From the IMG/VR virus record IMGVR_UViG_3300043540_000091, positions 32,001-96,000 of that record: a DNA stretch of 64,000 nt; one strand, given 5' to 3'. This document shows, one piece after another, positions 7,196 to 46,065 of this stretch. How positions within the stretch are numbered: the first letter of the stretch is position 1; every line of letters starts with the position of its first letter. Both the position numbers and the translations under genes were made by a program. Under the pieces are notes generated by a model, which did not search any database, was not told the origin of the DNA, and saw nothing but the letters and a program-made list of their open reading frames with translations. Origin of the DNA: a virus.

Positions 7196-8302
7196 TTAGC
7201 GTCCTTCCATCTTCTTGGACTTCTTAGGTTCCCAAGGCTTCTTGAGATCTTCTTTGATCTCTTCCTTGCTCATACGTATACCAGCCGGTTTAGCTGGCAT
7301 CTTTGGAGCTGCCATGGCAGGCTTCGGAGCAGCCGGAGCTGGCGCGGGAGCGGCCATTGCCTTGGTCAACTCTTCAAACTTGGCAGGCTCGTTCTTGGCA
7401 AGATCGATTAGATCTTTGGCTGCCTTGATGATCTCTGCTTTGTTCATGGGTTTCTTCTCGTCGGCGGACATACCTGCCTCCTTGTTCTCTTCAGATCGCG
7501 CTTGTGATGGATCGTGTAAGGTGCGAAGATGCGCGAGCATCGCACGCTGGCGTTCTGGGGTATCCAAGATCTTCATGGCATGACCGATCGTGTCGGCATG
7601 CTCAGATACATCATGAGCCTTGTCCTGCGGGCTGTTAGGCGCATGAGGCATATCGTCCTTCTTGACCTCGGACAGAGCCAAGCCCATCTCGGATGTTTTT
7701 TCCATTTCCTTCTCGGCCTTGGGCAGATTGGGCTTAGGCATTTCTTTAAGTTCTGCCAGCTTGTCCTTGTGCTGTTCCTTCGCCCAAGCGTTTGTCTTAG
7801 CGCTTGCGCCGCCAGGTGCCATGTGAGCTCCGACGCTTGAAGTTCCAGTCTTATGGCTTGCTCCGAAGTGAGCTTCGTGAACGCCCTTCTGTTTGCCCTT
7901 CTCGCCCTTTTCCATCTCAGCCTTGGGGAGGTTCGGCTTAGGAGCTTGCTTCATGTGAGCGAGACGGTCAGCAGCATCTTCCTTGGCCGATGACATGTAC
8001 TGCGCCGGTTCACGGACCTTCGTACCCATCGAGGATTGACCGGCTGGACGGCGCGGATCTTGATGGTTGATGCCGAAGTGATGAGAACGATTGGGATCAT
8101 TGTTGGTTATGAAGTTGCCGCCATGCTTGTCAGGGCCTATGTTACGCTTCCACTTCTCGTGGTGCGCGGCAGACGCCATGGACTTGCGACGTGCCTGTTC
8201 TTCTTTCGGAATAGCCTTGCCAAGTTCTTGAAATTGCTCAGGGTTTTCCTTAGCAGCCTTCAAGAGTCCCTTCGCTTGTTGAATAGCCTTATCTCTGCTC
8301 AC
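7196..8302 (-). CDS. low-complexity putative head/internal protein with repeated K[A/S]E and PKPNLPKAE motifs
   Basis: GTG start with AGGAG RBS; two PKPNLPKAE copies; related N- and C-terminal helices (AKGLLKAAKENPEQFQELGKA / AKDLIDLAKNEPAKFEELTKA). Confidence 0.75.
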   Translation of the reverse strand: MSRDKAIQQAKGLLKAAKENPEQFQELGKAIPKEEQARRKSMASAAHHEKWKRNIGPDKHGGNFITNNDPNRSHHFGINHQDPRRPAGQSSMGTKVREPAQYMSSAKEDAADRLAHMKQAPKPNLPKAEMEKGEKGKQKGVHEAHFGASHKTGTSSVGAHMAPGGASAKTNAWAKEQHKDKLAELKEMPKPNLPKAEKEMEKTSEMGLALSEVKKDDMPHAPNSPQDKAHDVSEHADTIGHAMKILDTPERQRAMLAHLRTLHDPSQARSEENKEAGMSADEKKPMNKAEIIKAAKDLIDLAKNEPAKFEELTKAMAAPAPAPAAPKPAMAAPKMPAKPAGIRMSKEEIKEDLKKPWEPKKSKKMEGR

Positions 8303-8327
8303 CGTGCAATTCTCCTAACTGATCGAA

Positions 8328-8335
8328 AGATTAGG
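8328..8335 (-). promoter_or_regulatory. putative late promoter CCTAATCT
   Basis: Exact 8-mer in the intergenic gap upstream of 8302. Confidence 0.65.
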
Positions 8336-8339
8336 TTAT

Positions 8340-10640
8340 TCATGCAGGCTCTTCCGAATGGACCTTTACCGGATGGAACATGGCAACCACGTTCGGCAGC
8401 GGCGAGCTGGAGTTGGTGTAGCCGTGGTATCCGGCGTCACGTATCCTGCCAAGGATCATGTCAGAGTTCCACGCGCCGCCGTTGTCAGAGATCGCGGACT
8501 TCACATGGCTATCTGGATCTTTGGCGAGGTCATAGATCTTGGTCGTGTGAGGCAAGGACACCTTGTACTTCGCCGAAGAGCGGCTGCGCACGATGTCTTC
8601 CGGTTGAGATCCGGCACGATAGAAGTAGGAGCGAGCAACTTCCGGCAGGCCGCGCTTGTATTCCTGTGATGGTGCGCCGGTACCCATGTGACCAGGAGAG
8701 ATCTCGCTCAGTCCCTTGATCGCGCTGTAGTGTTCAAGCTGGATCGGAGCATTCTTTGCCATCGGATGAGGGAAGTTGAGTCGGAACTTGAAGGATGACC
8801 CGTCAGGCATGCGTACTTCAGTGTGATCTCCGGATGGATCTGTCACCTCAGAGTGACCAGCGCCGATGCCCATCGGTTTGTGAGACGGATGCGTTGCGAT
8901 CTCTTCGTGTTGCCCATGCTCTCCGTGGATGACCGCGAGCTGCCCATACTTCTTACCGAGCTGTATCGCATGCTCTCGCGACATTCCTGGAACGACGTAG
9001 CTAGGCTCGGTAGAGCCTCCCCATCGACCGACAGCATGAAGAGGTGAGTACCCAAGGCTCGCAACGTCAGACAAGAACGACTTGTGCGCTGCGGCGTTGT
9101 CAGCCTCTCCTGCTCCAGATCTGTGAGGAGTCAGGATCGCGAACCGGCCATTGGTAAGAAGCTTGGAGACGTGCTCGGAGTTCTTTGCAAGATCGCTCTT
9201 GGCCATGCGCTTCTTGAGCTTCGATCTGAAATACGCCTGAGCCTTACTGCGAGCTTCTTCATGATGGCCCTGGCCGCGAAGATTGATAGCGGTATGAGGC
9301 GACGGCTTGGTTACCCATCCTTTATCCGGTGAGTACTTCGCGTTTGAAGACTCGCGTTCCTCGAACAGCTTGGCTGTCTCAGGAGTATAGACTTCCTTAC
9401 CTCCGGCGATGTACTTACCGTTTGGCAGCTTGCGAGCTACCTGTACGTCCGGACGATCTGCGGCCATCTCGAATCCAGGCTTCTTGACTACACGTCCCTT
9501 CGCGTGAGCTGGGAGCCCAAGCTGACGACGGATCTGGTTCTCGCGAGCGGTCGATTCGTACTCGTCCTTGACACGCGCCTGTTGCTTGTATCCGTACTTT
9601 ACGTTCTGCGCTCCCCACTCCTTGTCCATCATCTCCTGGAACTGCTTCATGGCTACCTTCTCAGGTGCCATGTCCAAGTGAGCGAGTTCGTGAGCGAGAG
9701 AGTCGGGATTGCCGATATGTTCAAGATATCCAGTAGTTAAGTCGGGCTTGTTGATCATTTTTCCGGAAGAAGATTTCTTGCCCTTTGCCTGCCTTACCTT
9801 AACTCCATACTTCTTCTCGGCGTACTCAGACAATGTCTTCATCTGCTTCGCGCGTTGCTTGGAGTTGGGAGAGGTCTTCCAACTTCCAAACACCTTCTTG
9901 CGCTGCTCACGAACGTTCTTTGACTTCTCGAGGTCGTTTACAGTCGCTTCAGACTTGCCGCCGCCGAAGCCGATCGCAGCAAGGAGTTGCTTACTTTCTT
10001 GAGCTACGTTGTCGAGTCCAGTCTTCTCCGGCAGTCCTCCTGACAAGCTTTGCTGGATGGCCTTGCCCTGTTCAGCCGTGGGGAACTTCGGAGGAGTCGT
10101 GCCGCCTGGTTCGATCTTCTTCGCGGGAAGCTCTCCCTTGATCGTAGTGTATCCTGGCTTCACGTTCGGATTGATGACCTTGCCGCCCTCGCCTATTCCA
10201 AGCAGCTTCTCAGACATGCGGCGACCTTCGTTCTGGTCTCGACGCCAAACGCTCGTTACGAAGCGTGCTGCCTCTTCTCTGGCTGGATGATTGTATGGGA
10301 CGGGCTGGCCGGATAAGAAATGTTGCTTGAGAGAATCTGGGATCTGAACACCGGCGACATGGGTAGTCTCCGGAGTCTTCGGCACGATGGCAGATCCGAC
10401 CTTCTTAGACTTCTGGATGACCTTCCCGAAACCCTTGGGCTTGGGAGGCTCTTTGACGGTGACAGAGCCAAGAGGCTGCTTCGGCGGTTCCTTCATAGTG
10501 ACCGAGCCGAGAGGCTGCTTCGGAGCTGGCTTAACGGTGACAGATCCAACGGGAGGAGTCGCCGTGGGCTTCACGGTAACGGTACCGAACTCTCCGGATC
10601 TAGCTAACTTCTTGCCAAAAATCTTCTTGAAGGCGTTCAT
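8340..10640 (-). CDS. multi-domain (polyvalent) protein: repeats + HEXXH domain + DUF3293-like + ADP-ribosyltransferase-like domain
   Basis: DSLAHELAH; GRFAILTP...N...LGY...GRWG..EPSYVV...AIQLGKKYGQ; C-terminal LEHYS...SYFY...IYDL...IRDAGYHGY. Confidence 0.7.
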   Translation of the reverse strand: MNAFKKIFGKKLARSGEFGTVTVKPTATPPVGSVTVKPAPKQPLGSVTMKEPPKQPLGSVTVKEPPKPKGFGKVIQKSKKVGSAIVPKTPETTHVAGVQIPDSLKQHFLSGQPVPYNHPAREEAARFVTSVWRRDQNEGRRMSEKLLGIGEGGKVINPNVKPGYTTIKGELPAKKIEPGGTTPPKFPTAEQGKAIQQSLSGGLPEKTGLDNVAQESKQLLAAIGFGGGKSEATVNDLEKSKNVREQRKKVFGSWKTSPNSKQRAKQMKTLSEYAEKKYGVKVRQAKGKKSSSGKMINKPDLTTGYLEHIGNPDSLAHELAHLDMAPEKVAMKQFQEMMDKEWGAQNVKYGYKQQARVKDEYESTARENQIRRQLGLPAHAKGRVVKKPGFEMAADRPDVQVARKLPNGKYIAGGKEVYTPETAKLFEERESSNAKYSPDKGWVTKPSPHTAINLRGQGHHEEARSKAQAYFRSKLKKRMAKSDLAKNSEHVSKLLTNGRFAILTPHRSGAGEADNAAAHKSFLSDVASLGYSPLHAVGRWGGSTEPSYVVPGMSREHAIQLGKKYGQLAVIHGEHGQHEEIATHPSHKPMGIGAGHSEVTDPSGDHTEVRMPDGSSFKFRLNFPHPMAKNAPIQLEHYSAIKGLSEISPGHMGTGAPSQEYKRGLPEVARSYFYRAGSQPEDIVRSRSSAKYKVSLPHTTKIYDLAKDPDSHVKSAISDNGGAWNSDMILGRIRDAGYHGYTNSSSPLPNVVAMFHPVKVHSEEPA
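10410..10586 (-). repeat. about four 39-bp (13-aa) tandem repeats G[S/T]VT[V/M]K..PK.P
   Basis: GTVTVKPTATPPV GSVTVKPAPKQPL GSVTMKEPPKQPL GSVTVKEPPKPKG. Confidence 0.8.
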
Positions 10641-10655: not shown

Positions 10656-11837
10656 CTAATACGTCCTGAGTACCTGGATACCAGACGTAAGTTCGAGTGG
10701 ATGTATGATGATGCCTGCGTCCTCGGCGGAGATGGCCGGTCCGAACGATGACAGTTTCTTGAACGTGGGTTCATCGATCTCCACATGTGGCTCGTTTGAG
10801 CTAGACGTAGGTCCTATAGGAGACGTCGCGGCCATGAGGTGAGTCAGCTTCTCTGGCATCCCATGGACCACCAAGACGTGCTTCTTGCGGCCAACGGCTG
10901 CGATCTCTTGAGGAACGAACACGAGCTTTGACGATTGGATCGGAACGGAGGCATCGTGCGCGGACACCAGCTCGTGCAGCTTAGGATGCTGTGCGGCGGC
11001 CATCGGCCCAAAGTTCTTTACCACCATGCGAAATGGCTTGCCGTCATCGCTAGACGTACGTCCATATACCGTGACGGGGTACGACAAGATGAGATCCTTC
11101 TGGACCGGTTCTGCCTTCTTAAGTGACGGATCTTTTATGAAGCTGTTTGCCCAATGCACCGCGTCCTGAGTCATGTCTCGACTGCGGACGATCTTCTTGC
11201 CGGAGATCTTCTGAGCGTGCGCGGCCATGGTCGTCCCGATACCTTTACGACGATGAAGTCTGTTCACCTCGAAGTTGAACGGCATCAGGTCGCCGGACGG
11301 CGTATGGGTTACAGCCAAGAAACCAACCTGCTTCCCGCCACGTATAGCCTTGACGATGAAGTCGTGATTCTTTGGGTTGAACGCGCCTGGATCAACCGCA
11401 AACGATTCGACCTTGATCTTTGTAGCGGACTTCTCAACAGGCTCAGGCTTCTTCATCGTGTGGTTCATCCATTCCACGAGGATGTTACGTTCTTTTGGAA
11501 TGTGAAGGCTGTCGTGCGACGTCGGATCAAGGAACTTGAAGGTGACGAACTCTGAGTCAGGATCTGCGCCAGCATACGGGCTGAAGCCTTCCGGATACTC
11601 ACACGAGAACAGGTGAACGTGGGCGTCTCCATACATGTTCTCGTGCATGTGGTCGAGCTTAACTCCCTTGAGTCCAGTCTCTTCCTCGAGTTCGCGTGAC
11701 GCGGCTTCGCTGTCGATCTCGCCGCTCTTCGCATGTCCACCTGCCAATGCCCACCTATGATTGTCACGACGAAGGCCGTGCAGAAATAGGTTCGGCATCT
11801 CAGGATGTCTGATTGCGATGGCGACGATCTTCTTCAT
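10656..11837 (-). CDS. Nudix hydrolase - GNAT acetyltransferase - degenerate 2H-phosphoesterase-like fusion
   Basis: Nudix box GGHAKSGEIDSEAASRELEEETG; GNAT motif A VNRLHRRKGIGT; C-terminal domain with PHVEI; ATG 11837 coupled by TAATG. Confidence 0.8.
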   Translation of the reverse strand: MKKIVAIAIRHPEMPNLFLHGLRRDNHRWALAGGHAKSGEIDSEAASRELEEETGLKGVKLDHMHENMYGDAHVHLFSCEYPEGFSPYAGADPDSEFVTFKFLDPTSHDSLHIPKERNILVEWMNHTMKKPEPVEKSATKIKVESFAVDPGAFNPKNHDFIVKAIRGGKQVGFLAVTHTPSGDLMPFNFEVNRLHRRKGIGTTMAAHAQKISGKKIVRSRDMTQDAVHWANSFIKDPSLKKAEPVQKDLILSYPVTVYGRTSSDDGKPFRMVVKNFGPMAAAQHPKLHELVSAHDASVPIQSSKLVFVPQEIAAVGRKKHVLVVHGMPEKLTHLMAATSPIGPTSSSNEPHVEIDEPTFKKLSSFGPAISAEDAGIIIHPLELTSGIQVLRTY

Positions 11838-12796
11838 TAAGGGTCTTCCTCCATCTTCCATCCCTGCGACTGAGCGTAGATCTGGTATTCATCTGGAGTG
11901 CGCGGACCGTCAATGATCCTGATGCCGCCCTTGATACCTTGGATCTTGGGAGCTGCGTACTTGATGAAGTTAGCTTCTACCTGGCCCGACAAGCTCATCG
12001 AGCAGCTGTATACACGCTCAGCTCCGTTGAAGTGCGGGTTCTCATCGATAGACCCAAGAGTGAAGGTCGATAGCTCGAATCCTCTACGCTCAAGATACGC
12101 TTCTTTGTAGCGGAGGAAGATGTACTGCGCGATCTGTCTAAGCCATATCGCCTGATTAAGATCAGACTCGGCGTGCAGGCCTATGGCGAACTGCTCTTCG
12201 AGGAAGGTCAGTTCCTTGTTCAGGTTCCACAGCGCGGTGGGCGGTACTACGTACGCATTGGTGAAGTCATCGTCGATGCCAGGTGTTATGAGGAACGCCT
12301 TTGGTCCGAGAACGGCGTTGATCACGTATGCCTTACTCGAACGCTTGGACACAAGATACTGCCCTGGCAACATGTTCGTGGTGTCGATGTTGTCGGGCAG
12401 GGTGAAGAGCCCCTTCTGCTTGTTGTACGCCTTAGGAGTGAACTCTGTATATGTCACCTGGATCTGCTTCGTGATATCGATCGGATCAAAATCTTCCTCT
12501 GATCCGATGTCCGCGAGTGAGTCTCGCTCTGTCATCTCTCTTGAGGAGGTGCGTACCACGGTAATGCAAGGGAAGCGAGGGGTGTCGACGCGGTTGACCA
12601 GGTAGACATCGATGTTGTTGCCAAGGAACCACTCCCTCGCACGTTGGATCTCCTTGTGACCATAGTCTAGTCGAGCGAGAGGATCGTTCGCGAGATCTGC
12701 GAAGATGTCGTCCAAGATCCAGTTGTTCTTGCGCAGGTCGGCAAGCGCTCCCTCGATCATGGTCTTGATAAGGATGTCAGTCGCGAGTATTCCCAT
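11837..12796 (-). CDS. putative tail completion / tail terminator protein
   Basis: Position in neck-tail run; RFPCITV motif typical of tail-terminator-like proteins. Confidence 0.55.
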   Translation of the reverse strand: MGILATDILIKTMIEGALADLRKNNWILDDIFADLANDPLARLDYGHKEIQRAREWFLGNNIDVYLVNRVDTPRFPCITVVRTSSREMTERDSLADIGSEEDFDPIDITKQIQVTYTEFTPKAYNKQKGLFTLPDNIDTTNMLPGQYLVSKRSSKAYVINAVLGPKAFLITPGIDDDFTNAYVVPPTALWNLNKELTFLEEQFAIGLHAESDLNQAIWLRQIAQYIFLRYKEAYLERRGFELSTFTLGSIDENPHFNGAERVYSCSMSLSGQVEANFIKYAAPKIQGIKGGIRIIDGPRTPDEYQIYAQSQGWKMEEDP

Positions 12797-12797
12797 G

Positions 12798-13772
12798 TTA
12801 TTGTCCTAACGTCTCCTCGATATTCTTCACTATCGTCTCCCACTGCGCGTTCGCATGGTCATACGCCTTCTGAAGAAAGTTTGCAGGCTCGACTGCGGGA
12901 TACATCCATCGATTCTCTTGCTTATGCTTCGACGATATAACCCTGAAGACAACCGTCTCCTTCTTAACAGAACCCTTCTTGGTCGCGGCGATCTTAGCAG
13001 CGTCGCGCTTGTTCGTTACGAGCTTGCCCTTGTCATACACGTTCTGAAAGACTGCGGCTCCCTGTAATTTGAATATACCAGAATGAGGGCGAAGGCCAGT
13101 CCTGGCCGCCTCCGTTTCCGTTCGCGGTCTGGAATAGATCACGCCAGGAGCATAGCCAGCGGCGTCATGTGGACGTATGTCCAGCTTCCTGATCAACCCA
13201 AGCTTAGGAGTATTGTCCAGGTTCTTCTCGATCTTTGTCAGATTGATCTTGTTCTGCTTGGTGTAATCTCGCACGATCTGTGACAAGGCAGGGTGAGAAG
13301 CGGTATCCTTCTTGTTGGAGGTCTCTTTGAACGGGATGGCCCTGTACAGAGATCCATCCTTCGCGCGTTTTACTCCACGGGCACCTGGCTTCAATAGCCA
13401 TTCTCCCATGAATGTTTCCTTACGGCCCTCTTCCAGCCAGCGTGCGCGTTCGTCAATCTCAACTACCCACAGTCCATCACCGACCTTGATCCAGCGAAGG
13501 TACTTTGGGACCTGGTCTACGTGAGGATCGTTGGTAGATCTGCTGGACGCGTCCTTGCCGAACTCGCCCGTACCAAGGTAGAAGTTACGCTTGAAGTCAT
13601 CGTCCTTCCATTTCTCCTTGGTTAAGCCGATGATGTATGCGTGGGAGGCTTTAGACAGAAGCTCGACTTGCTGGACGACTACGTCTTCGACAAGCTCGCG
13701 TGCGAGTCTTACCTTCGCAGCGATCTCGTCTACGTTTACCCTGAATCTAAAGAGGCCCTTCATGTCGTTCAT
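12798..13772 (-). CDS. putative neck / tail-completion protein
   Basis: ARWLEEG...YRAIPF...FRVISS...WMYP...FLQKA pattern seen in myovirus neck genes; synteny. Confidence 0.55.
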   Translation of the reverse strand: MNDMKGLFRFRVNVDEIAAKVRLARELVEDVVVQQVELLSKASHAYIIGLTKEKWKDDDFKRNFYLGTGEFGKDASSRSTNDPHVDQVPKYLRWIKVGDGLWVVEIDERARWLEEGRKETFMGEWLLKPGARGVKRAKDGSLYRAIPFKETSNKKDTASHPALSQIVRDYTKQNKINLTKIEKNLDNTPKLGLIRKLDIRPHDAAGYAPGVIYSRPRTETEAARTGLRPHSGIFKLQGAAVFQNVYDKGKLVTNKRDAAKIAATKKGSVKKETVVFRVISSKHKQENRWMYPAVEPANFLQKAYDHANAQWETIVKNIEETLGQ

Positions 13773-14962
13773 TAGGTAGCACCTTGATCACCGGCCTTCG
13801 AGTTGTGCGACTCGACTGATATGGCGTTACCTTTATCGTCTTGCACTTGCCCTGCTGCGACGGAACGCCACTTGGCCTTGCCATCGACGATCACCTTCTT
13901 CTTGCGGTTCTTAACTGTTCCGACAGGATACCGAATCTTGAGAGCCTTGTTCAGCTCTTCGGTCAGCGACGTGACTTCAAACTTCTTGGTGCTGCCTTCC
14001 TTGCGGCTCTTCACCATACCAACAAGCTTGTGGATCAGCGTGACTACCTTCTTGAATGCCTCTGGATTCTTATCGTGAAGCTCCATCAGCTTCGGCATGC
14101 GATCCTGCACGTCGGCCAGGAGCTTGCCAAGCTTCTCATTGTCATCTCCAGAATCATCGTCAGATTCACTGTCCGACTCGTCTGAATCATCGTCGCTCTT
14201 GGACTTGGAGCTGTCTTCCGAGTCTTCGGAATCACTGGACTTCTCCTTTGACTCAGTCTTCGGCTTGTCGCTCTTCTTCTCGCCGGACAGGGCTTCGAGC
14301 AAGCTGTCAGGCCCTTCACCTTGTTGTTGTTGCTCAGCCTGCTGCTGTTGTTGTTGCATCATCTGCTGCATCTCCTGAGCAGGTCCCATCAACTGCGATA
14401 CCGTAGCTTGGATGAGCTGATTCTCTGCCTCGAGAGCTTGCTGCGGATTAAGGCCAGGGACGTACTTGCCGACAGAATCTTTGCTCGAATCTGCCTTGGG
14501 AGACGGTGGATGAGTCTCGTCGAACAGATTCGGCTGGAAGTTGAAGGAATCATCCTCGATCTGGAGACTCTTCTTCATCTCGTCGTATGACTCATCTTTG
14601 GGATCGTACAGCTCGATGTCGTTCGTGTATACAGACTTCTTTGCGGCCAACGCAGCCTCTCTCAGATTGAGGCCCATGCCGACAGCCATGAGCATGCCGA
14701 ACACCTTCTTGTATCCTGCGAGGATCAGCGGGAGTTCTTCTGCTACTGTGACGGGAAGTTCTAGGATCTGACGTTCGTAGGTCGACAGCTTTACCTGTCC
14801 ACCGCGCTCGCCGACGAGCTTGTTGACCTTATCAGCGACAGACTTCAGTTGATAGTCTAGGCCTTGAGCTTCGGACAGATAGCCGCTGTCGACCAGATCT
14901 CTGATCTTGTCGGCTACGCCGTCCGTTATGATCATTACCCAAACTGATGTCTGCGTTGACAT
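13772..14962 (-). CDS. protein with degenerate mCpol/GGDEF-like N-terminal domain, Q- and D/S-rich linker and small basic C-terminal domain
   Basis: IITDGVADKI...GGQVKLSTYERQILEL...MAVGMGLNLREAALA follows the palm-domain (mCpol) pattern without the DGD/GGD acids. Confidence 0.6.
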   Translation of the reverse strand: MSTQTSVWVMIITDGVADKIRDLVDSGYLSEAQGLDYQLKSVADKVNKLVGERGGQVKLSTYERQILELPVTVAEELPLILAGYKKVFGMLMAVGMGLNLREAALAAKKSVYTNDIELYDPKDESYDEMKKSLQIEDDSFNFQPNLFDETHPPSPKADSSKDSVGKYVPGLNPQQALEAENQLIQATVSQLMGPAQEMQQMMQQQQQQAEQQQQGEGPDSLLEALSGEKKSDKPKTESKEKSSDSEDSEDSSKSKSDDDSDESDSESDDDSGDDNEKLGKLLADVQDRMPKLMELHDKNPEAFKKVVTLIHKLVGMVKSRKEGSTKKFEVTSLTEELNKALKIRYPVGTVKNRKKKVIVDGKAKWRSVAAGQVQDDKGNAISVESHNSKAGDQGAT

Positions 14963-22998: not shown

Positions 22999-23265
22999 TC
23001 AGGATAATGAAGGATCTTCGGAGTCGTCGACTTCGAGGTCGCTCAAGCTCAACCCGAACTCTCGGGCCATCTCGTTCATGTGGCGGTTGGCTTCTGCAAG
23101 GTCAGCCTGGACTCTTGCGTCCCTCTCCATCAGTGCGGTGAAGATGGTCAGGACCTGCTCGAAGGAACCGATATGTATGTCACTCGACTTCTGCTGTGGC
23201 CGCATAGACTTGAGGTGCTCGACAAGCCGCTCTTCGATCTTCTTGAAGAATACCTTCGCCGTCAT
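22999..23265 (-). CDS. hypothetical protein
   Basis: 88 aa, GGAGG RBS, ATGA overlap. Confidence 0.65.
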   Translation of the reverse strand: MTAKVFFKKIEERLVEHLKSMRPQQKSSDIHIGSFEQVLTIFTALMERDARVQADLAEANRHMNEMAREFGLSLSDLEVDDSEDPSLS

Positions 23266-39300: not shown

Positions 39301-39842
39301 CCGTACTCCCCGATGCCTTCCTGAGCTTCGGGATTCTGAGATCCTTCCTTCCAGTGCTGCATGTAATAGTCTGGAGGCAGCTGTTCGTAGGTGTGCGGGA
39401 TAGCTCCGGCCTTGAACGCCTTGTCAGACATGGTACGAAGCTCATCTTCGTTCATGATTCCAGAGTTCGCAAGATCTTCATGAGAAGAAGAGTTCGGATG
39501 GTCGGGATGGAAGGTCCGTGATAGATAGTCCTTCTTGATGTGAAGCGGAGTGTTCGGATGCTTCATCAAGTTGTCTGCCCATTCATAGCTGTACGGCTCT
39601 GCCTCGCCCGACTCATCGAGCGTATGGCTGTCCATCATGTGGTTGTACAACTTCTCGATGCTGGCAGATGACAAGTTCGGATGCTGCGTAAGCTCATCCA
39701 TGAGAGGCTCGTTCTCGAACTTCTCAGCGTCGGGCAAGGAGATGTACTTCTCGACATGAGAATGCAGAGTGTCAGCTGGCGTATCAGGTGCCAGATGCGG
39801 AGTGTCGACTGTATCTTCTACTTCATCATCATGGTCCGACAT
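33330..39842 (-). CDS. giant (2170 aa) helical-repeat protein with C-terminal polyvalent-protein-type domain
   Basis: Recurrent L.[H/N]P[N/S].. LRV/HEAT-like repeats; C-terminal HLVSWSRVD...VVEEYQSDF. Confidence 0.75.
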   Translation of the reverse strand: MSDHDDEVEDTVDTPHLAPDTPADTLHSHVEKYISLPDAEKFENEPLMDELTQHPNLSSASIEKLYNHMMDSHTLDESGEAEPYSYEWADNLMKHPNTPLHIKKDYLSRTFHPDHPNSSSHEDLANSGIMNEDELRTMSDKAFKAGAIPHTYEQLPPDYYMQHWKEGSQNPEAQEGIGEYGLEGLINSKRHTPETLDRTIDSIHANKYHGVDEYSPTPDNASHLGRLVRAREDLSRAHLNKIHQLLESTPKEHDYSRHDAIGDILEHNNVDPALLAKYATNKDARREALQHPNLPKESIDAFIRRVKKPNDYDNKSKISNLLRNPSITKEQVKALIQKGSQDAIHHELADESDVRASWNGSDKSTDAARNILSAKQVPPDVLKEIVNHKNQDVAVQALNHDKADMSVVQEALKRKARTVQDAARLHPLVADQQVRERLSSGKTSISEVYHDDDFKSHFDKMPKEQQDEIFKAAHQKYAGADLEDIAKKTKERPETVLHSKLSMAMDSRVSPEIREKHAKDISTAFKKKIGKNKEFYASPYNVLHEQHNDDDSRLIRAVAELAQSGDKNAQEAVLSNPAMMQNLSSHIDLKKADPSFLDSAYLKAKEYAAKPPKIYDRHGRPKDLEPAHVIAPIFRSKNLSLDTFHDIAKNKDLMDAIGEGDELKRYDQLPEADQKARYSEILNSGSQEAAKSIIHTKAPAEIWDRALKMLPAEHRDEVLAENIKNVSEHRPDLFGNAVLGGFNHEGESRAQNAAVHRLNSLDVSHLNLAKQLIGTPAEMQGHLSDEDIMNSVSKSILTREGMIDHALATGRNDLASKMFGQRVRSQSQSLHNGQASKERAQGIMNEIANRMATIPNDDDNQVAGNWAKLLNNTKNYYGIGSDAFQTLKHTGGVNMDFLADMPGESGAQLRKLALQKDLISPEKVSEIAQTGSLADVLAIPNNAVKRTALDGWLSKPDLSPDDVSDISRSLNQYLLNPEAHTGGRSTSMSDNAFSEYSSRLRKLMDLSIDKSPDDLSNIIRNAFTSPSNVKELTDKDMDRISKDVLDHLSSRSYPSDQVKNESMYRAINALSRKDLVGEKTKSAFERQVMDSKDFNTLVTMAQEGNLSDKGMEFIARAVKSPGKLSSSEIAGISTQFSNSTEPKTVVEMAKTFEAKLAQERAEGKTRKHNEDTVKFISSLSHTFNASTTSSEEDKVKNDFVVNYTKKAALNPAVALHANSLLYKMAVAQSHTDEERSIDLLASLPNDRAAYNQFNPLNMSSIVNNPRFMEMAQSGVKLEMLAKNASKLTGNNASILVSRAMTTPLPEGNAQLMITLNKNKYVQMEDSVKLGRSLTDAEFRDVAESVYNALEGNLVDVAHSRLNSVQDLLKDPNLAAPGAPHLGMEHREAILNKLKIFSNVVANSTFTSDLSGVGGKLEKIDQMVDVIHESVQKIAASLRDETAKLGYGDSVRYNHQAIKGIAENIASANIKLGRNQAMKTFDMLKEFHSLDEAAGKKLTAPEETFGILTNIVSKAEQLEDQDWKSMFQSRPDAMFALSKRSSIPKEALASVDLRGIEDSKTGEGSMHQAFMVESSQWMNKMSSDDRAAYGKQLMDMYVRMHVDGKVQGDAYQNSMKTAIKSMARHMTRGDVQDIMVGTKDHSIAQSLFKEAVTNGAGGEETLKMYVRDHKKIMGTDLFAISKDSGSYEGSNIANRLEPVIRSPHINEEVSGRVCAMFVTNPEAMEAAMNKMLENPSVPQSSVDRIADQVSTNAQANHARFSESIGMGLSSQLLKHPNISEARLAKVMSQSEKEYGAYITHEAPFNPAFVNPTHGGKLFRAQPVVTPKDVPNVDGSLAVKTLNVKSGDYEKMREVMGFIPAEGMSWVEFKRKYPQQEKNLPKSVKDVFMAANNKPVMPERFVEAARQLDDNASKYHITFSDWKSPLQRHRGEDQKPNLVVQVNNSEEKERELSKDPKLWALYQHLLMDANGVDAAENSIGLHPTTPHLVSWSRVDTDQDKGSWVVEEYQSDFAQKFRSNLNALIESMPEGSHINGQHITADEMKQYSKTIARHLDDWADASMQAVIENAKAHGIKNLYMHGAELRGYLSNSDYNREFWDNKNTKAKMSGFRKIYEEGPRKYGFEECDYTDYPRYSSSLLGELNASKLSTKCWVLKLNAPDQRPKRKKKPNLR
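33337..33344 (-). promoter_or_regulatory. putative late promoter CCTAATCT
   Basis: Exact 8-mer in the last codons (PNL) of the giant gene, just before the next ATG. Confidence 0.55.
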
Positions 39843-40450
39843 TACTCATCTCCGTACTTCAGCCAGTACATCATCTTGCGAGTCCATTCCTTATCCTCGG
39901 CCTGATGAAGACGGGCATTCTCGATATCTTGGTCATACTTCTTGCTCGCCAGCTTCTGGTTACGCTCTCGCTCGGCCTGCTGCTTGTTGATCATGTCAAG
40001 AACACCTGAACTTAGACTGACGTTAACTGGTTTGGCCGGTGCTTGCTCTGCAAGAGGCGGCGTTGACACGATCGGGAGAGCTTCCTGGATGTCAGTCTTC
40101 CGTGCGACCTTGATGTCACCGCGCTTGATCGCTGCGAACAGCGCGTCCTTGGTCTCTTGATCGATCAGATCGCCGTTCAGCATGCAGGTATGGCCATCAG
40201 AGGTGATCTCAACCACGTCGCCATTGTCCATGACGTAGCGCAACAGGTTGACAGTTGCCTTCTTCGGCTGCTCGATGGTCAGGTGAGATGACTTCTGGAC
40301 GACCTGGATCATGCGCTGATAGCTATTCTGGAATAAGTCTGGGAGTTTGCCGTTGGTGTTATCGACGACGAAGTCCAGAACGCGACCATCCGTGCGGATC
40401 TCGGCCAACGGAACGTCAGAATAATCAGATTTTATGACAAAGATCTTCAT
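39842..40450 (-). CDS. hypothetical virion-region protein
   Basis: 202 aa, coupled to both neighbours. Confidence 0.7.
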   Translation of the reverse strand: MKIFVIKSDYSDVPLAEIRTDGRVLDFVVDNTNGKLPDLFQNSYQRMIQVVQKSSHLTIEQPKKATVNLLRYVMDNGDVVEITSDGHTCMLNGDLIDQETKDALFAAIKRGDIKVARKTDIQEALPIVSTPPLAEQAPAKPVNVSLSSGVLDMINKQQAERERNQKLASKKYDQDIENARLHQAEDKEWTRKMMYWLKYGDE

Positions 40451-42183
40451 ACTGCAGCCTTCTTCTTCTGTTCAGCATGCTCCGCATCGCGAGCTGCTCC
40501 AAAGGTTGGGCGGACTGCATTGTTCACGATGCTGCGCATGTGATCGATCGGCATGTCAGGCCTATCGGCGACCTTCTGGTACATCATGAGTCGGCCAACC
40601 GCGTGCTTTATGGTAATTGGATGATGCCCTTGATCCATCATCCTGCCAGCGAGTTTCTTCGGATCAATCCCCTTGATCCACTTGACTGCTTCCGGATGTA
40701 CCGGCTGACTGTCGCGCAGGTACCACGGCTTCATAGCTGGATCATAGTCGAACGAAGCGTCGTTGTCAATGTTTACCAGGTGTCCTTTAGGATGAATCAA
40801 CGTGTTACCGGAGTTCCGATCAGTGTCAGCGCCGAGGATACTGTCCATGATGGCCATTTTATGAACCGAACCGTCCTTGTTGGCGTTCTTCAAGACCGAG
40901 GCGATCTTCTCATCGGTCATGGTGTACGGAGTCTTAGCTCCGTCTATGATCTCCATGGCTTGATGATGCCGCTGAGATGCCTTATCGCCGTCTATTTCCT
41001 TAACTCCAGCAACAGGATGCTTGAAGTAGTTCGTGACAGGGACGTGCTTGCCCATGCCGAAGACGTCGTTGGCCAGCTCATAGTAGTGGGTTGAGTTTTC
41101 TGCGGCCTTGCTATGGTCAGGATGTTTTACCAGTACGTTCTGTCCGGCGTCGTTGCGATGCTTGGTGATGAGATTCGCGTAGTTCTCATGCCCTGGCGTA
41201 AAATCGGTGCCGCCGTGCTTACGCTTGGGATCAAAGTACAGCCCTTCCATCAGCTTCTTCTGTGCTTCTGACTGATTCTTGTTCGGACTGTGCGAAGCTC
41301 CGACGCGGATAAGCTTGATGGACGGCTTCGACTTCTTGAGCGCAAGCTCCTCGGCAAGATCCGTGAAGTGGTGGATGTAATCATCCGACACTTCCGGAAG
41401 AGCTGCCTTAAGAACTTCCTTCAACGGGCGCTTACGGTCCCAGTCGCGAACGATCGCCTTGACTCGGTTACGCTGGAATCCGGTGATATGTTCCTTGGTG
41501 AGCGCTGCGCCGCCGGTCAGCTGACCTGGCGCGACATTGCCCATACCGGCAGTGAGTGCCTTGTTCAGATCCTCGAGGGCCTTGTGCAGGTCCAGGACCG
41601 GATCATGAGGCATGAACGATTCATCCAGTACCGGCGATTCGAATTTCATAAGGTCTGCTATGTCCGAAGATATCTTCCGTATCGACTTTGCGACACTCTT
41701 CGTCTTAGGGTCATCATAAAGACCGGCAATGGCCATCTTGTTGCAGCTGCGGAGAGTGATGGCAACGCGACGGCCAACCGATTCCTTAAGAATATAGTCT
41801 TCACGTTCTAGAGTAGCTCCTTCTATGCTGAAGCCGACCAAAAGCCGCTCATCCTTTGCCGCGTAATAGCGGATCATAGCGGCGACGGCTACCGCACCTG
41901 GATGCTCTTGATCCTCAAACAACTCGCCTATGATATACACGAATGGTTTTTTCGAAAAGTCCCAGTAAGCTCTTTGTCGATCGTTCTCGCAATCTTTCTT
42001 TTCCATTATCTTCTTGGCATAGATAACAGCGCCGACGATATCTTCAGCTTTATTTGAATGCTCGAAGTTCAGAACGCCTTTACCATCTATAAGATCCGAG
42101 ATGTCGTGGTTCTCTACTATTAATAACTCACCGCTTGAGTCGATATGCTCGGATGTTGCTATGCCGTCTATCTTAAGATTCAC
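40447..42183 (-). CDS. prohead protease fused to C-terminal PI3/4-kinase / HipA-like domain
   Basis: IDGIATSEHIDSSGE...NFEH...GFSIEG...VAIT protease motifs; MDSILGADTDRNSGNTLI...NIDNDASF kinase motifs; GTG 42183 (GTGA overlap, GGGAG RBS) or ATG 42198. Confidence 0.85.
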   Translation of the reverse strand: MNLKIDGIATSEHIDSSGELLIVENHDISDLIDGKGVLNFEHSNKAEDIVGAVIYAKKIMEKKDCENDRQRAYWDFSKKPFVYIIGELFEDQEHPGAVAVAAMIRYYAAKDERLLVGFSIEGATLEREDYILKESVGRRVAITLRSCNKMAIAGLYDDPKTKSVAKSIRKISSDIADLMKFESPVLDESFMPHDPVLDLHKALEDLNKALTAGMGNVAPGQLTGGAALTKEHITGFQRNRVKAIVRDWDRKRPLKEVLKAALPEVSDDYIHHFTDLAEELALKKSKPSIKLIRVGASHSPNKNQSEAQKKLMEGLYFDPKRKHGGTDFTPGHENYANLITKHRNDAGQNVLVKHPDHSKAAENSTHYYELANDVFGMGKHVPVTNYFKHPVAGVKEIDGDKASQRHHQAMEIIDGAKTPYTMTDEKIASVLKNANKDGSVHKMAIMDSILGADTDRNSGNTLIHPKGHLVNIDNDASFDYDPAMKPWYLRDSQPVHPEAVKWIKGIDPKKLAGRMMDQGHHPITIKHAVGRLMMYQKVADRPDMPIDHMRSIVNNAVRPTFGAARDAEHAEQKKKAAV

Positions 42184-42968
42184 GACGCGTACTCCCACTT
42201 ATATCCCTTATATGAAGAGTACTTACCCGCAAGGCACCGATACACTGAACTCTTTATGAAACCAGCGGCTTCAGCGGCCTTGGCGGTGCTGAAGAAGAGC
42301 GCGGGGCCGCCTTCCAGACTGACAGCCTTAAGTTTGGACCCACGGGAGAACTTCGGAGATAAACGTGTTGATCTAGACTTAAGATGTAATAATTTAAGTC
42401 CTGTAGGAGTTCTCGTTAAGGAAGGCTGAGGATATTCTGTTTCCGGCGCAAACTTCCACCGACTACCTGCATGAGACCATTCCTTACCATTGCAGCACTT
42501 GGAGATCGATACCCGACAATATCCATCGGCCTGAGCCATCCCCATGTTTGGGTAACAGACTTCGATACCTGTCACGAGGTCCAGCCTGACTACTCGACGC
42601 GCGTTTGGTTGTCGGCATCTGAAGCCTGTGTTGGACTGCTTTATCTTGAGTTTAATGTCTTCAGACAAAGTCTTGTACTTTGATCCGCCTGATTCAAGGT
42701 TGTATCCATTCGGCACTATAGACTTATGCTGAGCGATATGGAACCTCTCTAGGTCATCAAGAGCTTCTGGAAATGGAGCTGACGCCAGAATTGCCACCTC
42801 AAAGTTATCCTTGCCATACTTCTGGATGGCCTTATGAAGCAAGAACTTCCTAGTCTGACTCGCGTAGCAGTGTTCGGCCCATCGGCGTTCAATACCTTGA
42901 GAAGTTTGGCCGACGTACTTCTTGCCGTTGACCTTGTTTGTTATTAGATAAACGATGCCGCAGTTCAT
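42180..42968 (-). CDS. GIY-YIG homing endonuclease with NUMOD1-like C-terminal repeats
   Basis: GIVYLITNKVNGKKYVGQT, RWAEH, NGYNL; two A...G....I..C..GK.....G.KW repeats. Confidence 0.92.
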   Translation of the reverse strand: MNCGIVYLITNKVNGKKYVGQTSQGIERRWAEHCYASQTRKFLLHKAIQKYGKDNFEVAILASAPFPEALDDLERFHIAQHKSIVPNGYNLESGGSKYKTLSEDIKLKIKQSNTGFRCRQPNARRVVRLDLVTGIEVCYPNMGMAQADGYCRVSISKCCNGKEWSHAGSRWKFAPETEYPQPSLTRTPTGLKLLHLKSRSTRLSPKFSRGSKLKAVSLEGGPALFFSTAKAAEAAGFIKSSVYRCLAGKYSSYKGYKWEYAS

Positions 42969-42975
42969 ATCTCAC

Positions 42976-42983
42976 AGATTAGG
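42976..42983 (-). promoter_or_regulatory. putative late promoter CCTAATCT, 7 nt before ATG (leaderless)
   Basis: Overlaps the MuF TAA stop; ATG at 42968. Confidence 0.65.
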
Positions 42984-43887
42984 GTTCGTGTTTGCAACCA
43001 AGGGTACAAGTGTTACCGCTACTCTTTGAGAGTACATGCTCCTTCTCGTGCTCGATGTTGATCTCTAAGTATTCGTCATAACTGATGAAATTTGGCATCG
43101 GCGTGTCGGCGGAGGTCGGCTCTTCAGACTTGCGAACGCTCCAGTAGTCCTCATAGTAGTCATAGCCGATCGCCTTGAAGACGATCGTGCCGGACTTATC
43201 GTACCCGAAGTTCGGAGGAACGAAGGCCATGATGTGTCGGCAGTGAGGATGAAGAGGCGACTGGTGCGGCGTCTTGCCGTCCCATTCCTTAGGTTTGAAG
43301 TACCCTTCTCGGACCTGCGACAACCGATATGGTTTGGGGACCTGCAGATTGGACCGGTCATGGTACATGGACTTGCAGTACTTGCAGATCTTATGGTCGG
43401 CGATGCCGAGAAACACGACGGTCGGATCTTTCACCTTGATGTCAGACGCCAACCTCGTGATACCCTCGCGAGAGGCGTAGGCTTGAACGATGTGAGCCTC
43501 GTTCGCCACTAACATGTCAACGTATTCTCCGGCCTTGTCGAAGTGATTTCTGATATACCGGATCGCTTCCGATGGAGTCTTTGCCTTGGCTACGTCGGCC
43601 AAGATATGATTCTTCACCTTCAGCTGCTGGGAGTCGAGGTAGTCGGACGTGATCTCGGCGAGATTCTTGATGTTCGAGACGTTTGGCTTTGCGTCGGGAC
43701 CGTATAGCATCTTCAAGGTGTACATGTAGATGCCTTCGATCGTGTGAAGAGGATCGGTCCGCTTCACGACCTCGAAGTAGATCTTCGGCCCTTTGAAGAG
43801 CTTGCCGAGAAGACCTGCCTTGGTACTCTCGAAGAGAGACTCGATGCGGCTGATGATTAAGCGGCGCTGGGCGTCGGTGAGCTTCAC
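42979..43887 (-). CDS. head morphogenesis protein (MuF / SPP1 gp7-like)
   Basis: Follows portal; DHKICKYC and PLHPHCRH motifs. Confidence 0.85.
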   Translation of the reverse strand: MKLTDAQRRLIISRIESLFESTKAGLLGKLFKGPKIYFEVVKRTDPLHTIEGIYMYTLKMLYGPDAKPNVSNIKNLAEITSDYLDSQQLKVKNHILADVAKAKTPSEAIRYIRNHFDKAGEYVDMLVANEAHIVQAYASREGITRLASDIKVKDPTVVFLGIADHKICKYCKSMYHDRSNLQVPKPYRLSQVREGYFKPKEWDGKTPHQSPLHPHCRHIMAFVPPNFGYDKSGTIVFKAIGYDYYEDYWSVRKSEEPTSADTPMPNFISYDEYLEINIEHEKEHVLSKSSGNTCTLGCKHEP

Positions 43888-46065
43888 CTACTCTCCCTTC
43901 TTGTCGTCCTTGATCACCTTGGACATGTCGGCGACGGCCTTCTTCGCTTCCTTGCGCCAGCGCTCCATGTGAGCGTCGACAAGGTCGTTGTGTCTGCGAA
44001 GCAACTTTCTCGAGATCGAGTTGTGATTGTTCTTGATGGCCTTCTCCAAGACGACATAGTTTGCGGCAGCCCACTGAATGTTCTTGGTTGAGATCTCCTT
44101 GATCTGATCAAGAGGCTTCTCTGCCTTGGACGTCTGTTCCGGCGGTGGATTGGAGTCTCCCGAATCTTGGTTAGAATCACCGGAGTCACCCGAATCTGGG
44201 TTACCCTCGTCTTCTCCTCCCTCTTCGGGACCTCCCGCTGAGGTTTGCATGGCCTGCTGCTGTACCATCATCTCCTGCTGCATGGCGATCTGAGCCTTCT
44301 GAAGCACGATCTGTTGTTGCTGGAACCAGAACGGATCACGGATGTACTGATAGCGAGGATCTTGTGCTGCGCCCTTCTGCTTGAAGAGATTCTCTAGGAT
44401 CACGCCGACCGGCACGTACTTATCAAGGACGGCCTGCATCTGCGGGTTCAGAGGGAAGTCGCCGCCAAGCTCGGCGGGGACCGGATTCTTCTCCACCTGC
44501 TTCATGACCTCGTTGTAGGTCATATGGACGGCCATGTCCTGCTGGAGTCGAGTGTTCTCCTTCTCGGGAGAGTCCTTCTCGAGACCTGTCATAACGATCT
44601 GGTGAGTCTTTGCAAGCTCGGAGTCGACGAACGGGAGGATGTGACTGTTGAGGAAATCCTGGATGTCCTGCAGCAACGGGCGCAAACCCACGTCGCGAGC
44701 AGCTGTGAGCTTCCATTCGTTGTCAGACTCGGAGAGGGCCTGAGTGTTCGTGCCGCGAGCAAGGTGCGCGTAGCCAGGAAGCTCTTCAGGAGACATCTGG
44801 AATGACGACAGGATCACACGAGCGTTGTTGTCCATGAGGTACTGGAACTCGGCGTCGCGGCCAGAATTATCGATCGGCTGCCATGAGAGTTCATCGTCAG
44901 TTCCGACGCCGAACACCGGCATGCGCCATGCGTTCTGGACAGAGTTGATGGACTGGTGGAACTGCAAGCGGATGCGCTGTACTGCCGCCTCATCGACGGA
45001 GTCAGACTTGAAGATTAACATTCCCTTTGCTGCGCGACCGTGCTGGAAGTACAGCTTGTTGTGCACCGTGATGTTGATATGAGTCGTGATGGCGTTCAAG
45101 GCCTGATCGATTGGAGTTAGCGGATAGCCAGAGAACTCGACGTTGGTAGTCGGGTACAGATTGTAGACCACCATCTCATCTTCTGTGAAGGCCTGAGATG
45201 GTTTACCTTCGATCACCTGAACGTAGCGGTATTCATCTTTCTTGTACTTCTCGATGTCGATCTTCTTGTTCTTCAGCTCAGACAATAGGCGGATGGCTTC
45301 AGTCCGAAGCGACTGGTCTTGCTCCTTCTTGGGCATGACCTTGTACATGGTACCAGCGTCGGATGCACGCCACGCGTACAGCTCGCTCTTACCGGTCTTG
45401 ATGTTGCGTTTCCAAACTCGTTCACATGCGAAGCGTCCGTACGCTAAGCCATCGCGAGTGATCAGCTTCAGGAACTGACTGAGGTTCACCTGGTTCAACT
45501 CATCGTCGAGAGCGCCATGGCCACAGCGCCACAGTATCTTCTTGGCACCGTCGATACGCTCTTGGATTTGCTTTGCTTCTTCCTCTGAGCGCTTGCGGTT
45601 CTTGTCCATTTCCTGGAACTCGAAACCCATGGAGAATCGATCGGTGCGAGGACGACCGAACGAGCCGATCATGTTAGAGCGTGCTTGTAAGATCTGGTTG
45701 ACAAGCTCGTCGCCGCCAGGACCTGTGATGCGTTTCAAGATATGGTCAGGAGTAAGGTTGGATTTTAGTCGATAGAAGCCCATCCCCGTCGCATAGTTTG
45801 CGCGTGGATCGACCTCGAACGCCATCCGGTCTACGCCGTCAGGCTGAGAAGCTATACGTTCGTTCTGTTGCCGGATGGACTTTAGGATGAGGCCAAGTAC
45901 AGAGTTACCTTCCGCCTTCTCGAACGGTTCGCCCTTGTCGGCTGCGGCATTCTGCGCCTCCCGATCTGCCTCTTCCTTCTTCAAGAGGTTATACGAGTTC
46001 ATGTCCAGCGCAACTATCTGCTGGACATGCTTAGCCGGTTTTGGACCGCTCTTATCTTTGGCCAC
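43888..46065 (-). CDS. portal protein
   Basis: FLKLITRDGLAYG, GYPLTPID, NKLYFQHGRAAKGML, NAWRMPV, DAEFQYL, RDVGLRPLL. Confidence 0.9.
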   Translation of the reverse strand: MAKDKSGPKPAKHVQQIVALDMNSYNLLKKEEADREAQNAAADKGEPFEKAEGNSVLGLILKSIRQQNERIASQPDGVDRMAFEVDPRANYATGMGFYRLKSNLTPDHILKRITGPGGDELVNQILQARSNMIGSFGRPRTDRFSMGFEFQEMDKNRKRSEEEAKQIQERIDGAKKILWRCGHGALDDELNQVNLSQFLKLITRDGLAYGRFACERVWKRNIKTGKSELYAWRASDAGTMYKVMPKKEQDQSLRTEAIRLLSELKNKKIDIEKYKKDEYRYVQVIEGKPSQAFTEDEMVVYNLYPTTNVEFSGYPLTPIDQALNAITTHINITVHNKLYFQHGRAAKGMLIFKSDSVDEAAVQRIRLQFHQSINSVQNAWRMPVFGVGTDDELSWQPIDNSGRDAEFQYLMDNNARVILSSFQMSPEELPGYAHLARGTNTQALSESDNEWKLTAARDVGLRPLLQDIQDFLNSHILPFVDSELAKTHQIVMTGLEKDSPEKENTRLQQDMAVHMTYNEVMKQVEKNPVPAELGGDFPLNPQMQAVLDKYVPVGVILENLFKQKGAAQDPRYQYIRDPFWFQQQQIVLQKAQIAMQQEMMVQQQAMQTSAGGPEEGGEDEGNPDSGDSGDSNQDSGDSNPPPEQTSKAEKPLDQIKEISTKNIQWAAANYVVLEKAIKNNHNSISRKLLRRHNDLVDAHMERWRKEAKKAVADMSKVIKDDKKGE

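Follow-up and report, generated by a model that had tools for sequence, protein, structure and literature searches.

Why should one short lysine-containing motif occur in the core head proteins of a phage and again between the domains of its multi-domain late proteins? The question arises from a 64,000-nucleotide stretch of viral DNA, hereafter the window, which comprises bases 32001-96000 of the 138,678-bp IMG/VR virus record IMGVR_UViG_3300043540_000091. Its late genes are all on the minus strand, at about 3651-54545, and the window coordinates given below refer to that strand. Among named phages, Myxococcus phage Mx1 is the nearest, its major capsid protein (MCP) being 52.6% identical, and there are 34 related loci in IMG/VR. 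An initial annotation had suggested that the motif hxK[SATN] (h, hydrophobic) is a site at which the prohead protease cuts effector polyproteins packaged in the head, and every motif instance it listed is present in the genes it named.

The phage combines an MCP of the SPO1 type and a protease of the COG3740 type with one short motif shared by MCP, scaffold, protease and late proteins. The motif is enriched and conserved, it lies at domain boundaries, and domains have been shuffled between the linkers that carry it. We consider it probable that the motif is a prohead-protease code marking both head proteins and cargo linkers, the cargo being packaged, cut into single domains and ejected. In what follows, an arrow after the lysine marks the putative cut.

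Enrichment of the motif in head and cargo proteins

A tight form of the motif, [LMIVF]-x-K-[SA]-[ED], suggested by the contexts of the first copies counted, was compared with 200 shuffles per gene class over the whole 138,678-bp genome; seven antisense open reading frames (ORFs) had been removed beforehand and a wrong-strand ORF exchanged for the MCP. It is about five-fold over-represented in two classes, the head core (10 ORFs; 12 copies seen, 2.5 expected) and the post-MCP block from MCP to tail sheath (14 ORFs; likewise 12 seen and 2.5 expected), numbers that none of the 200 shuffles reaches in either class. The other classes hold 1 copy for 0.7 expected (insert, 9 ORFs; reached in 98/200 shuffles), 3 for 2.1 (tail, 19 ORFs; 64/200) and 10 for 7.0 (other, 109 ORFs; 39/200). 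The broad form of the initial annotation, hxK[SATN], behaves in the same way, with 50 copies versus 28.5 in the head core and 51 versus 27.2 in the post-MCP block (0/200 each), and is flat elsewhere.

Exchanging the lysine for arginine leaves no copy in either of the two head classes, the reversed motif is found 2 times for 2.5 expected and once for 2.3, and the shifted pattern hKx[SA][ED] occurs once in each. These reversed, K-to-R and shifted-register controls, of which the last is a single one, lead us to reject an artefact of composition. Two variants are mildly raised: hxK[SA][KR] in the post-MCP block (6 versus 2.6; 10/200 shuffles) and hxxK[SA][ED] in the head core (6 versus 2.5; 11/200).

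Residue shuffles of individual ORFs give the same picture, with eight copies of hxK[SATN] in the portal protein (3.25 expected), five in the MuF-like protein (1.5), six in the scaffold (1.35) and five in the MCP (1.8), and, among the cargo-type proteins, five in 19787-21625 (3.1), three in 18259-18753 (1.2), ten in 14977-16923 (3.7) and nine in 7196-8302 (2.3). Double sites within the first 35 residues are present in 5/24 head or cargo proteins and in 1/137 other ORFs (Fisher p = 2.7e-4).

The enrichment recurs in five related metagenomic records (G001-G005), each of which has 8-9 motif copies in the head core (1.9-2.7 expected), 8-21 in the post-MCP block (2.5-3.6 expected) and 1-4 in the remainder (1.9-3.2 expected). 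One G002 protein, G002_43335_45359, spans the join of the record's end and start (terminal repeats) and may be an artefact; it was excluded from the Pfam scan and included in the homology-block, junction-cluster and relatives' motif counts. The annotated proteins of Mx1 show 6 copies versus 1.0 in the head, 11 versus 1.5 in the post-MCP block and 2 versus 1.3 in the rest. In the window genome, its relatives and Mx1 alike, head and cargo proteins are thus the only ones with an excess of the motif.

Searching with the 766-residue polyprotein described below retrieved 44 foreign polyproteins, which contain the tight motif 90 times for 15.8 expected (0/100 shuffles). The K-to-R control is found 10 times (7.8 expected) and the reversed motif is depleted, with 2 copies for 15.0 expected. 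A logo of the 90 sites shows Leu, Met, Phe or Val at P3, Lys at P1, Ser or Ala at P1', Glu or Asp at P2', Leu at P4' and Lys at P6', the last two because double sites are frequent.

The motif lies at domain boundaries

Several boundaries are seen in the 766-residue polyprotein encoded at 8340-10640. It consists of repeats, a small domain (residues 90-150), a domain with an HEXXH sequence (240-480), a DUF3293 domain resembling S-adenosylmethionine (SAM) lyase (486-624) and an ART-like domain (631-766). An AlphaFold2 model from a 43-sequence alignment (mean predicted local distance difference test, pLDDT, 78.1) is folded at 90-150, 240-480, 490-625 and 631-766, and fold matches span 486-624 and 630/631-766; the fold of the DUF3293 domain is similar to that of the phage SAM lyase of the T3 type. 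All six motif lysines are at or near low-confidence stretches between these domains. Lys77 and Lys88 are within a disordered segment (69-89), and Lys239, in the linker LEK239↓S (9921-9932) before the HEXXH domain, follows a low-confidence segment at 224-231. The linker between the HEXXH and SAM-lyase-like domains, MAKSDLAKN (9180-9206; Lys481 and Lys486), was confirmed by direct translation and has pLDDT values below 50 at 483-486, and MAK629↓N (8751-8762), between the SAM-lyase-like and ART-like domains, has them at 627-629.

The ends of homology to other proteins point to the same places. Of 95 internal ends of high-scoring segment pairs (HSPs), 75 are at most 10 residues from a motif lysine, where 12.4 would be expected; they cluster at 230-239 (23 ends in this segment), 460-499 and 620-639.

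A second case is a 401-residue protein (10656-11861) with the order Nudix, VEK144↓S, GNAT, LKK249↓AE, C-terminal domain (Pfam NUDIX 1.6e-9, GNAT 6.6e-4). Homology blocks of its relatives stop at 139-141, resume at 143 and are broken once more at 242-259. The initial annotation had read this protein as Nudix, GNAT and 2H-like domains joined by these two sites; the Nudix and GNAT domains and both junctions are borne out, and the 2H-like label is not confirmed, a profile search with residues 250-401 having given no match. The longest ORF overlaps the upstream gene, and alignments with homologs begin at residue 9 and not before, which makes the ATG at 11837 the likelier start. In relative G004, the Nudix polyprotein (L046:4170-6416) contains, after GNAT and ahead of its C-terminal domain, an inserted VTC domain (Pfam 1.9e-32; polyphosphate-polymerase type) that is followed by FIK↓SS and FNK↓AE.

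Both proteins belong to a cassette that extends from the ortholog of 11837-12796 to the sheath gene and in which the six genomes carry differing proteins, of up to 1290 residues, built from common modules in varied order. Pfam identifies NUDIX, GNAT, VTC, DUF3293, DUF5661, DUF6321, GP88 and LRV in them, and some polypeptides hold two or more unrelated enzyme domains. Over the whole cassette there are 112 junction clusters, of which 48 lie no more than 12 residues from a motif, compared with 26.8 expected (binomial p ~8e-6, for events that are not independent). HSP ends, pLDDT dips, fold matches and junction clusters therefore agree with the earlier proposal that the motif coincides with domain boundaries.

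Sites in the capsid, scaffold, portal and MuF-like proteins

The MCP (29982-31373) is of the SPO1/phi812 type, as judged from homology to Mx1, phrog_752 (2.1e-32) and the PDB entries 9vel (SPO1 gp6.1, 1.2e-14) and 5lii (phi812, 8.1e-5). Direct translation confirms an N-terminal double site, LVK6↓T ... LVK13↓T (31332-31364), which is kept in 5/5 orthologs, and all 34 loci share the N-terminal sequence L-x-K-[TA]-L-E-A-G. The short N-terminus matched only SPO1 gp6.1 when compared with the PDB; a full-length search was then used, yielding three alignments. In these PDB searches the N-terminus aligned with SPO1 gp6.1 and with phi812, Lys13↓Thr14 being paired with Lys24↓Ser25 of phi812. The 439-residue phi812 chain 9row_B equals the 463-residue chain 5lii_P minus its first 24 residues and so begins directly after the lysine aligned with Lys13. 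Chain 9row_B is presumably the mature phi812 capsid protein, and maturation is predicted to cut the MCP at Lys13↓Thr14. The corresponding cut in Mx1 would follow LRK.

Directly upstream of the MCP, a scaffold-like protein of 282 residues (31375-32223) contains six motif copies, including Lys21, Lys27, Lys171, Lys218 and Lys253, each site being kept in 4-5 of 5 orthologs. An alignment of 33 sequences (the window scaffold and those of 32/34 loci; L022 and L032 were left out because the selection rule found no adjacent upstream ORF) shows fixed h-x-K-[SA]-[ED] islands, while the remainder varies in sequence and in length.

The 725-residue portal protein (43888-46065; Pfam Phage_portal 1.2e-11 and PHROG portal families) has motif lysines that include Lys50 and Lys62, in an N-terminal stretch unaligned with Mx1, and Lys675; Lys62 is kept in 5/5 orthologs. 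A head-morphogenesis protein of 302 residues (42979-43887), weakly MuF-like (phrog_4728, 6.4e-4), carries VRK↓SE (Lys253) in its C-terminal tail, kept in 4/5 orthologs, and a further site at Lys288.

The prohead protease and its putative fused cargo

The protease gene (40447-42198) was identified by PHROG, Pfam, Foldseek and AlphaFold2. The protease domain occupies residues ~1-165 and is followed by a linker, a segment resembling the MCP N-terminal arm, a helical module and a kinase-like domain (~296-583). The family comprises 132 hits, and among 27 members scanned there are 23 with a match to phrog_1028, 'head maturation protease' (best E 1.7e-12); the window protease alone gives PHROG matches of 9.3e-4 and 5.8e-3 only. 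The model has pLDDT values of 81-96 (blocks of ten) across residues 1-160, and Foldseek against BFVD returns prohead protease, COG3740 and capsid maturation protease matches (E 6e-9 to 2e-6), which presumably belong to the N-terminal domain, aligned ranges being absent from the BFVD output. The protease fold was found only in BFVD: a PDB profile search with the protease alignment gave weak kinase matches only, and the Foldseek PDB results were filled by kinases. His42 and Ser119, the candidate catalytic pair, are invariant in 27/27 aligned sequences. The kinase-like domain matches Pfam PI3_PI4_kinase (4.2e-8) and, by Foldseek, PI4K II and PI3K in the PDB (E ~1e-5). With the separate kinase-like protein encoded at 19787-21625, the phage has two PI3/PI4-kinase-like domains, one fused to the protease and one standing alone, and Mx1 has both.

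Motif lysines are found at positions 171, 206, 213 and 289 of the protease, the first three in the low-confidence linker after the protease domain. The double site LHK206↓A ... LNK213↓A (41557-41589), in a low-pLDDT stretch, starts the arm-like segment; its two halves are kept in 4/5 and 5/5 orthologs, respectively, and the segment aligns with the N-terminus of the MCP, to whose arm it is homologous. LKK289↓S (41329-41340) is at the junction of the helical module and the kinase-like domain, and its 'LKK' is conserved across the family alignment. Just past Lys289 (284 in the model), the pLDDT dips to 56 at ORF residues 286-295 (model 281-290), flanked by blocks of 65-74 and 89-93. Relatives of the protease have whole extra domains inserted in the linker, between M-x-K-S-E-H and K-K-S-E-D-P, and differ in their C-terminal cargo, which is kinase-like, DUF5661 or GGDEF.

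Other cargo-type proteins and genomic surroundings

The cargo-type genes, flanked by those for MCP and tail sheath, share a minus-strand late block with the terminase, portal and protease genes. The standalone kinase-like protein (19787-21625; 612 residues; Pfam PI3_PI4_kinase 2.5e-7) has LSK121↓A, kept in 2/4 orthologs. In the 345-residue protein encoded at 18753-19790, ISK70↓S and LSK272↓S surround a central region; Lys272 is kept in 5/5 and Lys70 in 3/5 orthologs, and in Mx1 a homolog is fused to a Nudix-domain homolog within a 1479-residue protein (tblastn to Mx1 27575-28105). The 164-residue protein of 18259-18753 contains FHK↓SE, LTK↓SE and MRK↓SD, with Lys80 kept in 3/3 orthologs. A viral-contig search using the protein of 17358-18302 alone found 2 loci only.

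The 648-residue protein encoded at 14977-16923 has a conserved N-terminal domain, a variable middle and a Cys-rich C-terminal domain. A double site (Lys11 and Lys24) is found at its N-terminus, copies of the KPNLPK↓SE type in its Lys/Pro-rich middle, and MTK↓SDYFRSKLGK↓TE ahead of the zinc-ribbon-like C-terminal domain. The family retains double sites at the N-terminus and ahead of the C-terminal domain, and the G002 ortholog has an extra domain between VNK↓AE and IQK↓AE. In the 396-residue protein of 13772-14962, MKK131↓S follows the N-terminal domain (kept in 3/5 orthologs) and LNK339↓A is kept in 5/5. Two further labels of the initial annotation are likewise not confirmed: mCpol-like for 13772-14962 (E 0.12; 13.2 bits for a cut-off of 26.4) and transglycosylase for 18753-19790, where SLT-like is an Atlas feature lead only (score 0.90). 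PDB sequence searches with both proteins returned nothing meaningful, and an Atlas search with residues 1-130 of the former gave no usable match.

The 368-residue, Lys/His-rich low-complexity protein of 7196-8302 has KPNLPK↓AE twice among its nine motif copies and an LLKAAKENPEQFQELGKA module at its N-terminus; its modules recur in G001-G005. Outside the window and far from the head module, the same genome encodes, on the minus strand (C1:137051-138643), a 530-residue polyprotein in which parts resembling GNAT and DUF5661 are accompanied by two linkers of the form MxK↓SE (Lys192 and Lys283).

Family searches place the large terminase at 47078-48961, the tail sheath at 4140-6908 and the tail tube at 3651-4127. 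A GIY-YIG homing endonuclease gene (42180-42968; Pfam 1.2e-11, with an I-HmuI NUMOD-like tail) interrupts the pair of MuF-like and protease genes; a homolog is present in 1/5 relatives, G003, where it is inside the cargo cassette. Between the MCP and the later virion genes, small, poorly conserved genes (23262-29619) split the late operon, and the content of this block varies among the relatives. A 2170-residue ORF (33330-39842) in the middle of the head module, flanked by the protease and scaffold genes, has counterparts of 2068-2200 residues in the five relatives (26-44% identity); in Mx1, tblastn over the first 50 kb found none. The ORF was dropped as a candidate substrate, having neither motif enrichment nor site conservation and no family in Pfam and PHROG searches.

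Discussion

In the mechanism we propose, the code would read h-x-K↓[S/A/T]-(E/D), with Leu, Met, Phe, Val or Ile at P3 and Lys at P1, and its reader would be the HK97-type prohead protease of this lineage. Judged from the sequences, the code appears to mark the N-terminus of the MCP, the scaffold and the protease's own linker, and probably also the interdomain linkers of the hypervariable late polyproteins. The candidate cargo domains are Nudix, GNAT, HEXXH, SAM-lyase-like DUF3293, ART-like and PI3/4-kinase-like, with VTC, DUF5661, DUF6321 and GP88 in relatives. By analogy with known systems, the polyproteins would co-assemble into the prohead, some perhaps guided by N-terminal double-site peptides and one being fused straight to the protease. 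At maturation the polyproteins would be cut into single domains, which may then exit alongside the DNA as preformed enzymes for host modification or anti-defence. The assignment to the prohead protease, already made in the initial annotation, is favoured by the chain start of the phi812 capsid protein, the scaffold islands and the cargo inserted in the protease gene; the further step from motif to cleavage does not follow from the presence of the motif alone.

Several observations weigh against this mechanism. Conserved motif copies are found inside folded regions, namely at Lys230 of the MCP (5/5 orthologs), at Lys264 of the protease (in a predicted helix) and at several sites of the portal, so the motif cannot suffice for cleavage. 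The 2170-residue protein, in the middle of the head module, has 11 copies for 12.2 expected, and its sites are kept in only 0-2 of 5 orthologs. In several cassette proteins of G004 and G005, junctions seldom coincide with motifs (0/4, 1/6 and 0/3 cases). In the foreign polyproteins hxK[SA][KR] is enriched as well (44 versus 18.8), so the P2' acid is a preference, not a rule. HSP ends and related sequences are not independent, which makes the p-values rough, and that the cut would fall after the lysine is predicted from one homology argument, the lengths of PDB chains. In the accessible literature on Mx1 and other myxophages we found no virion proteome for Mx1 or for the window phage. Finally, the polyproteins' own HEXXH domain could be the processing enzyme, a possibility taken up below.

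The copies within folds, where cutting is unlikely, would be accommodated if the motif were not cleaved at all and served as a flexible-linker or docking element that binds scaffold, portal or capsid interior and loads the prohead, the polyproteins being delivered whole. The arm-like segment of the protease does resemble a docking device, and the virion RNA polymerase of phage N4 and some plasmid polyvalent proteins are described as transferred unprocessed (PMC5512222). The copy in the MCP, however, is aligned to the point at which the shortened phi812 capsid chain starts, tandem sites 5-7 residues apart in narrow pLDDT dips suit processing more than binding, and scaffolds of protease-bearing phages are usually degraded. 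We regard delivery of uncleaved polyproteins as unlikely.

Alternatively, the enzyme that cuts these sites might be the zincin-like HEXXH domain that the polyproteins themselves contain, acting either in the head or once injected, and the prohead protease would cut only MCP and scaffold. Among the 45 hits of the 766-residue protein the HEXXH module is the most widely shared part; it contains 'HELAH' at residues 316-320, of which Glu318 is nearly invariant in the 43-sequence alignment, and it is always preceded by a linker hxK↓SE[DG]LxK↓SKNV that recurs in foreign polyproteins. Autoproteolysis by embedded metallopeptidases has indeed been proposed for polyvalent proteins (Iyer et al. 2017, PMC5512222). 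Yet scaffold, MCP and protease linker, none of which has an HEXXH domain, conserve the motif, and polyproteins that lack this domain bear it too (the 401-residue Nudix-GNAT protein and the 14977-16923 family). Furthermore, neither Pfam nor fold searches matched the HEXXH domain to a metallopeptidase. Processing by this domain is, on balance, quite improbable.

It is, in our view, highly improbable that the motif has no specific function and arose simply from disordered linkers rich in Lys, Ser and Glu and from the shared descent of repeated modules. Counts are inflated by the many copies that lie in Lys-rich low-complexity regions and in repeats, for example KPNLPKAE and LLKAAKxNPEQF, but a reversed motif of the same composition is unenriched in the window and depleted in foreign polyproteins, the K-to-R control is flat, and the motif is conserved where its flanks vary and recurs between unrelated domains in differing orders.

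Cleavage by the prohead protease, the explanation we prefer, has partial precedents. In phage T4, internal and injected enzymes are loaded in the prohead and trimmed by gp21 at a short consensus that is also used by capsid and scaffold proteins. T4 differs in that a short N-terminal targeting peptide is trimmed, after Glu, from single-domain proteins, with no beads-on-a-string arrangement. Herelleviridae (SPO1, phi812/K, A511) have a homologous MCP, and it is with the start of the shortened phi812 chain that h-x-K↓[S/T/A] aligns; no polyprotein cargo code was found in the literature on them. The capsid protein of A511 is reportedly cut at a Lys-Ser bond, which our literature search did not confirm.

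In giant phages of the SPN3US/phiKZ group, one prohead protease processes many head and ejection proteins at a shared motif (PMC10052503). As described there for phiKZ, 201phi2-1 and SPN3US gp245, the resemblance extends to a short common motif, to substrates that include internal or ejection proteins, portal and protease, and to several motif copies within propeptides; the cuts, in contrast, follow Glu (e.g., E-124) and mostly trim N-terminal propeptides (PMC10052503). The window phage has Lys at the predicted P1, an SPO1-like capsid and putative sites between enzyme domains.

Iyer, Burroughs, Anand, de Souza and Aravind (2017) described polyvalent multi-enzyme proteins encoded beside virion genes and predicted to be packaged, and they list T4 Alt as packaged and injected (PMC5512222). 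These proteins likewise unite Nudix, GNAT, ART and metallopeptidase domains in one chain, have virion genes as neighbours, are predicted to be injected and include fusions to assemblin-like peptidases, but their release has been attributed to embedded peptidases and their assemblin-like peptidases are C-terminal (PMC5512222). In the window phage the protease domain comes first in its protein, and the linkers carry a defined motif that MCP and scaffold also have; word searches of Iyer et al. (PMC5512222) found no inter-domain sequence code. Their paper was the only relevant one found on prohead protease, polyprotein and ejection effectors. Our literature searches found no account of an inter-domain linker code common to MCP and scaffold (supplementary tables of the SPN3US and Iyer papers may hold more), of a Lys-P1 code in any lineage whose capsid is of the SPO1 type, or of cargo inserted in a protease gene between two such sites, and no paper on DUF3293.

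More tentatively, Mx1-related phages may possess a linker grammar that says 'cut here' to the prohead protease and can be carried from protein to protein. Its elements would be KPNLPK↓SE and double sites of the type YF[KR]xxL-x-K↓SE-DL-x-K↓. Any enzyme domain could thereby be inserted, either in a polyprotein packaged in the head or in the protease gene, and then be loaded, freed at maturation as one unit and injected. The region between capsid and sheath would then hold an exchangeable stock of enzymes for host takeover and anti-defence, and its fast domain shuffling would be explained.

A real code would supply a rule that, from the genome only, predicts head cargo and the positions at which it is cut, in at least 34 environmental phage contigs and in the cultured phage Mx1. 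Because Mx1 and its host can be cultured, the prediction is directly testable. For anyone wishing to load capsids with foreign proteins, the code would provide a design taken from nature. It would join the maturation of ejection proteins by prohead proteases with polyvalent effectors, two subjects so far treated separately, and would point to a varied set of candidate injected enzymes, namely SAM-lyase-like, ART-like, Nudix, GNAT, VTC and PI3/4-kinase-like ones.

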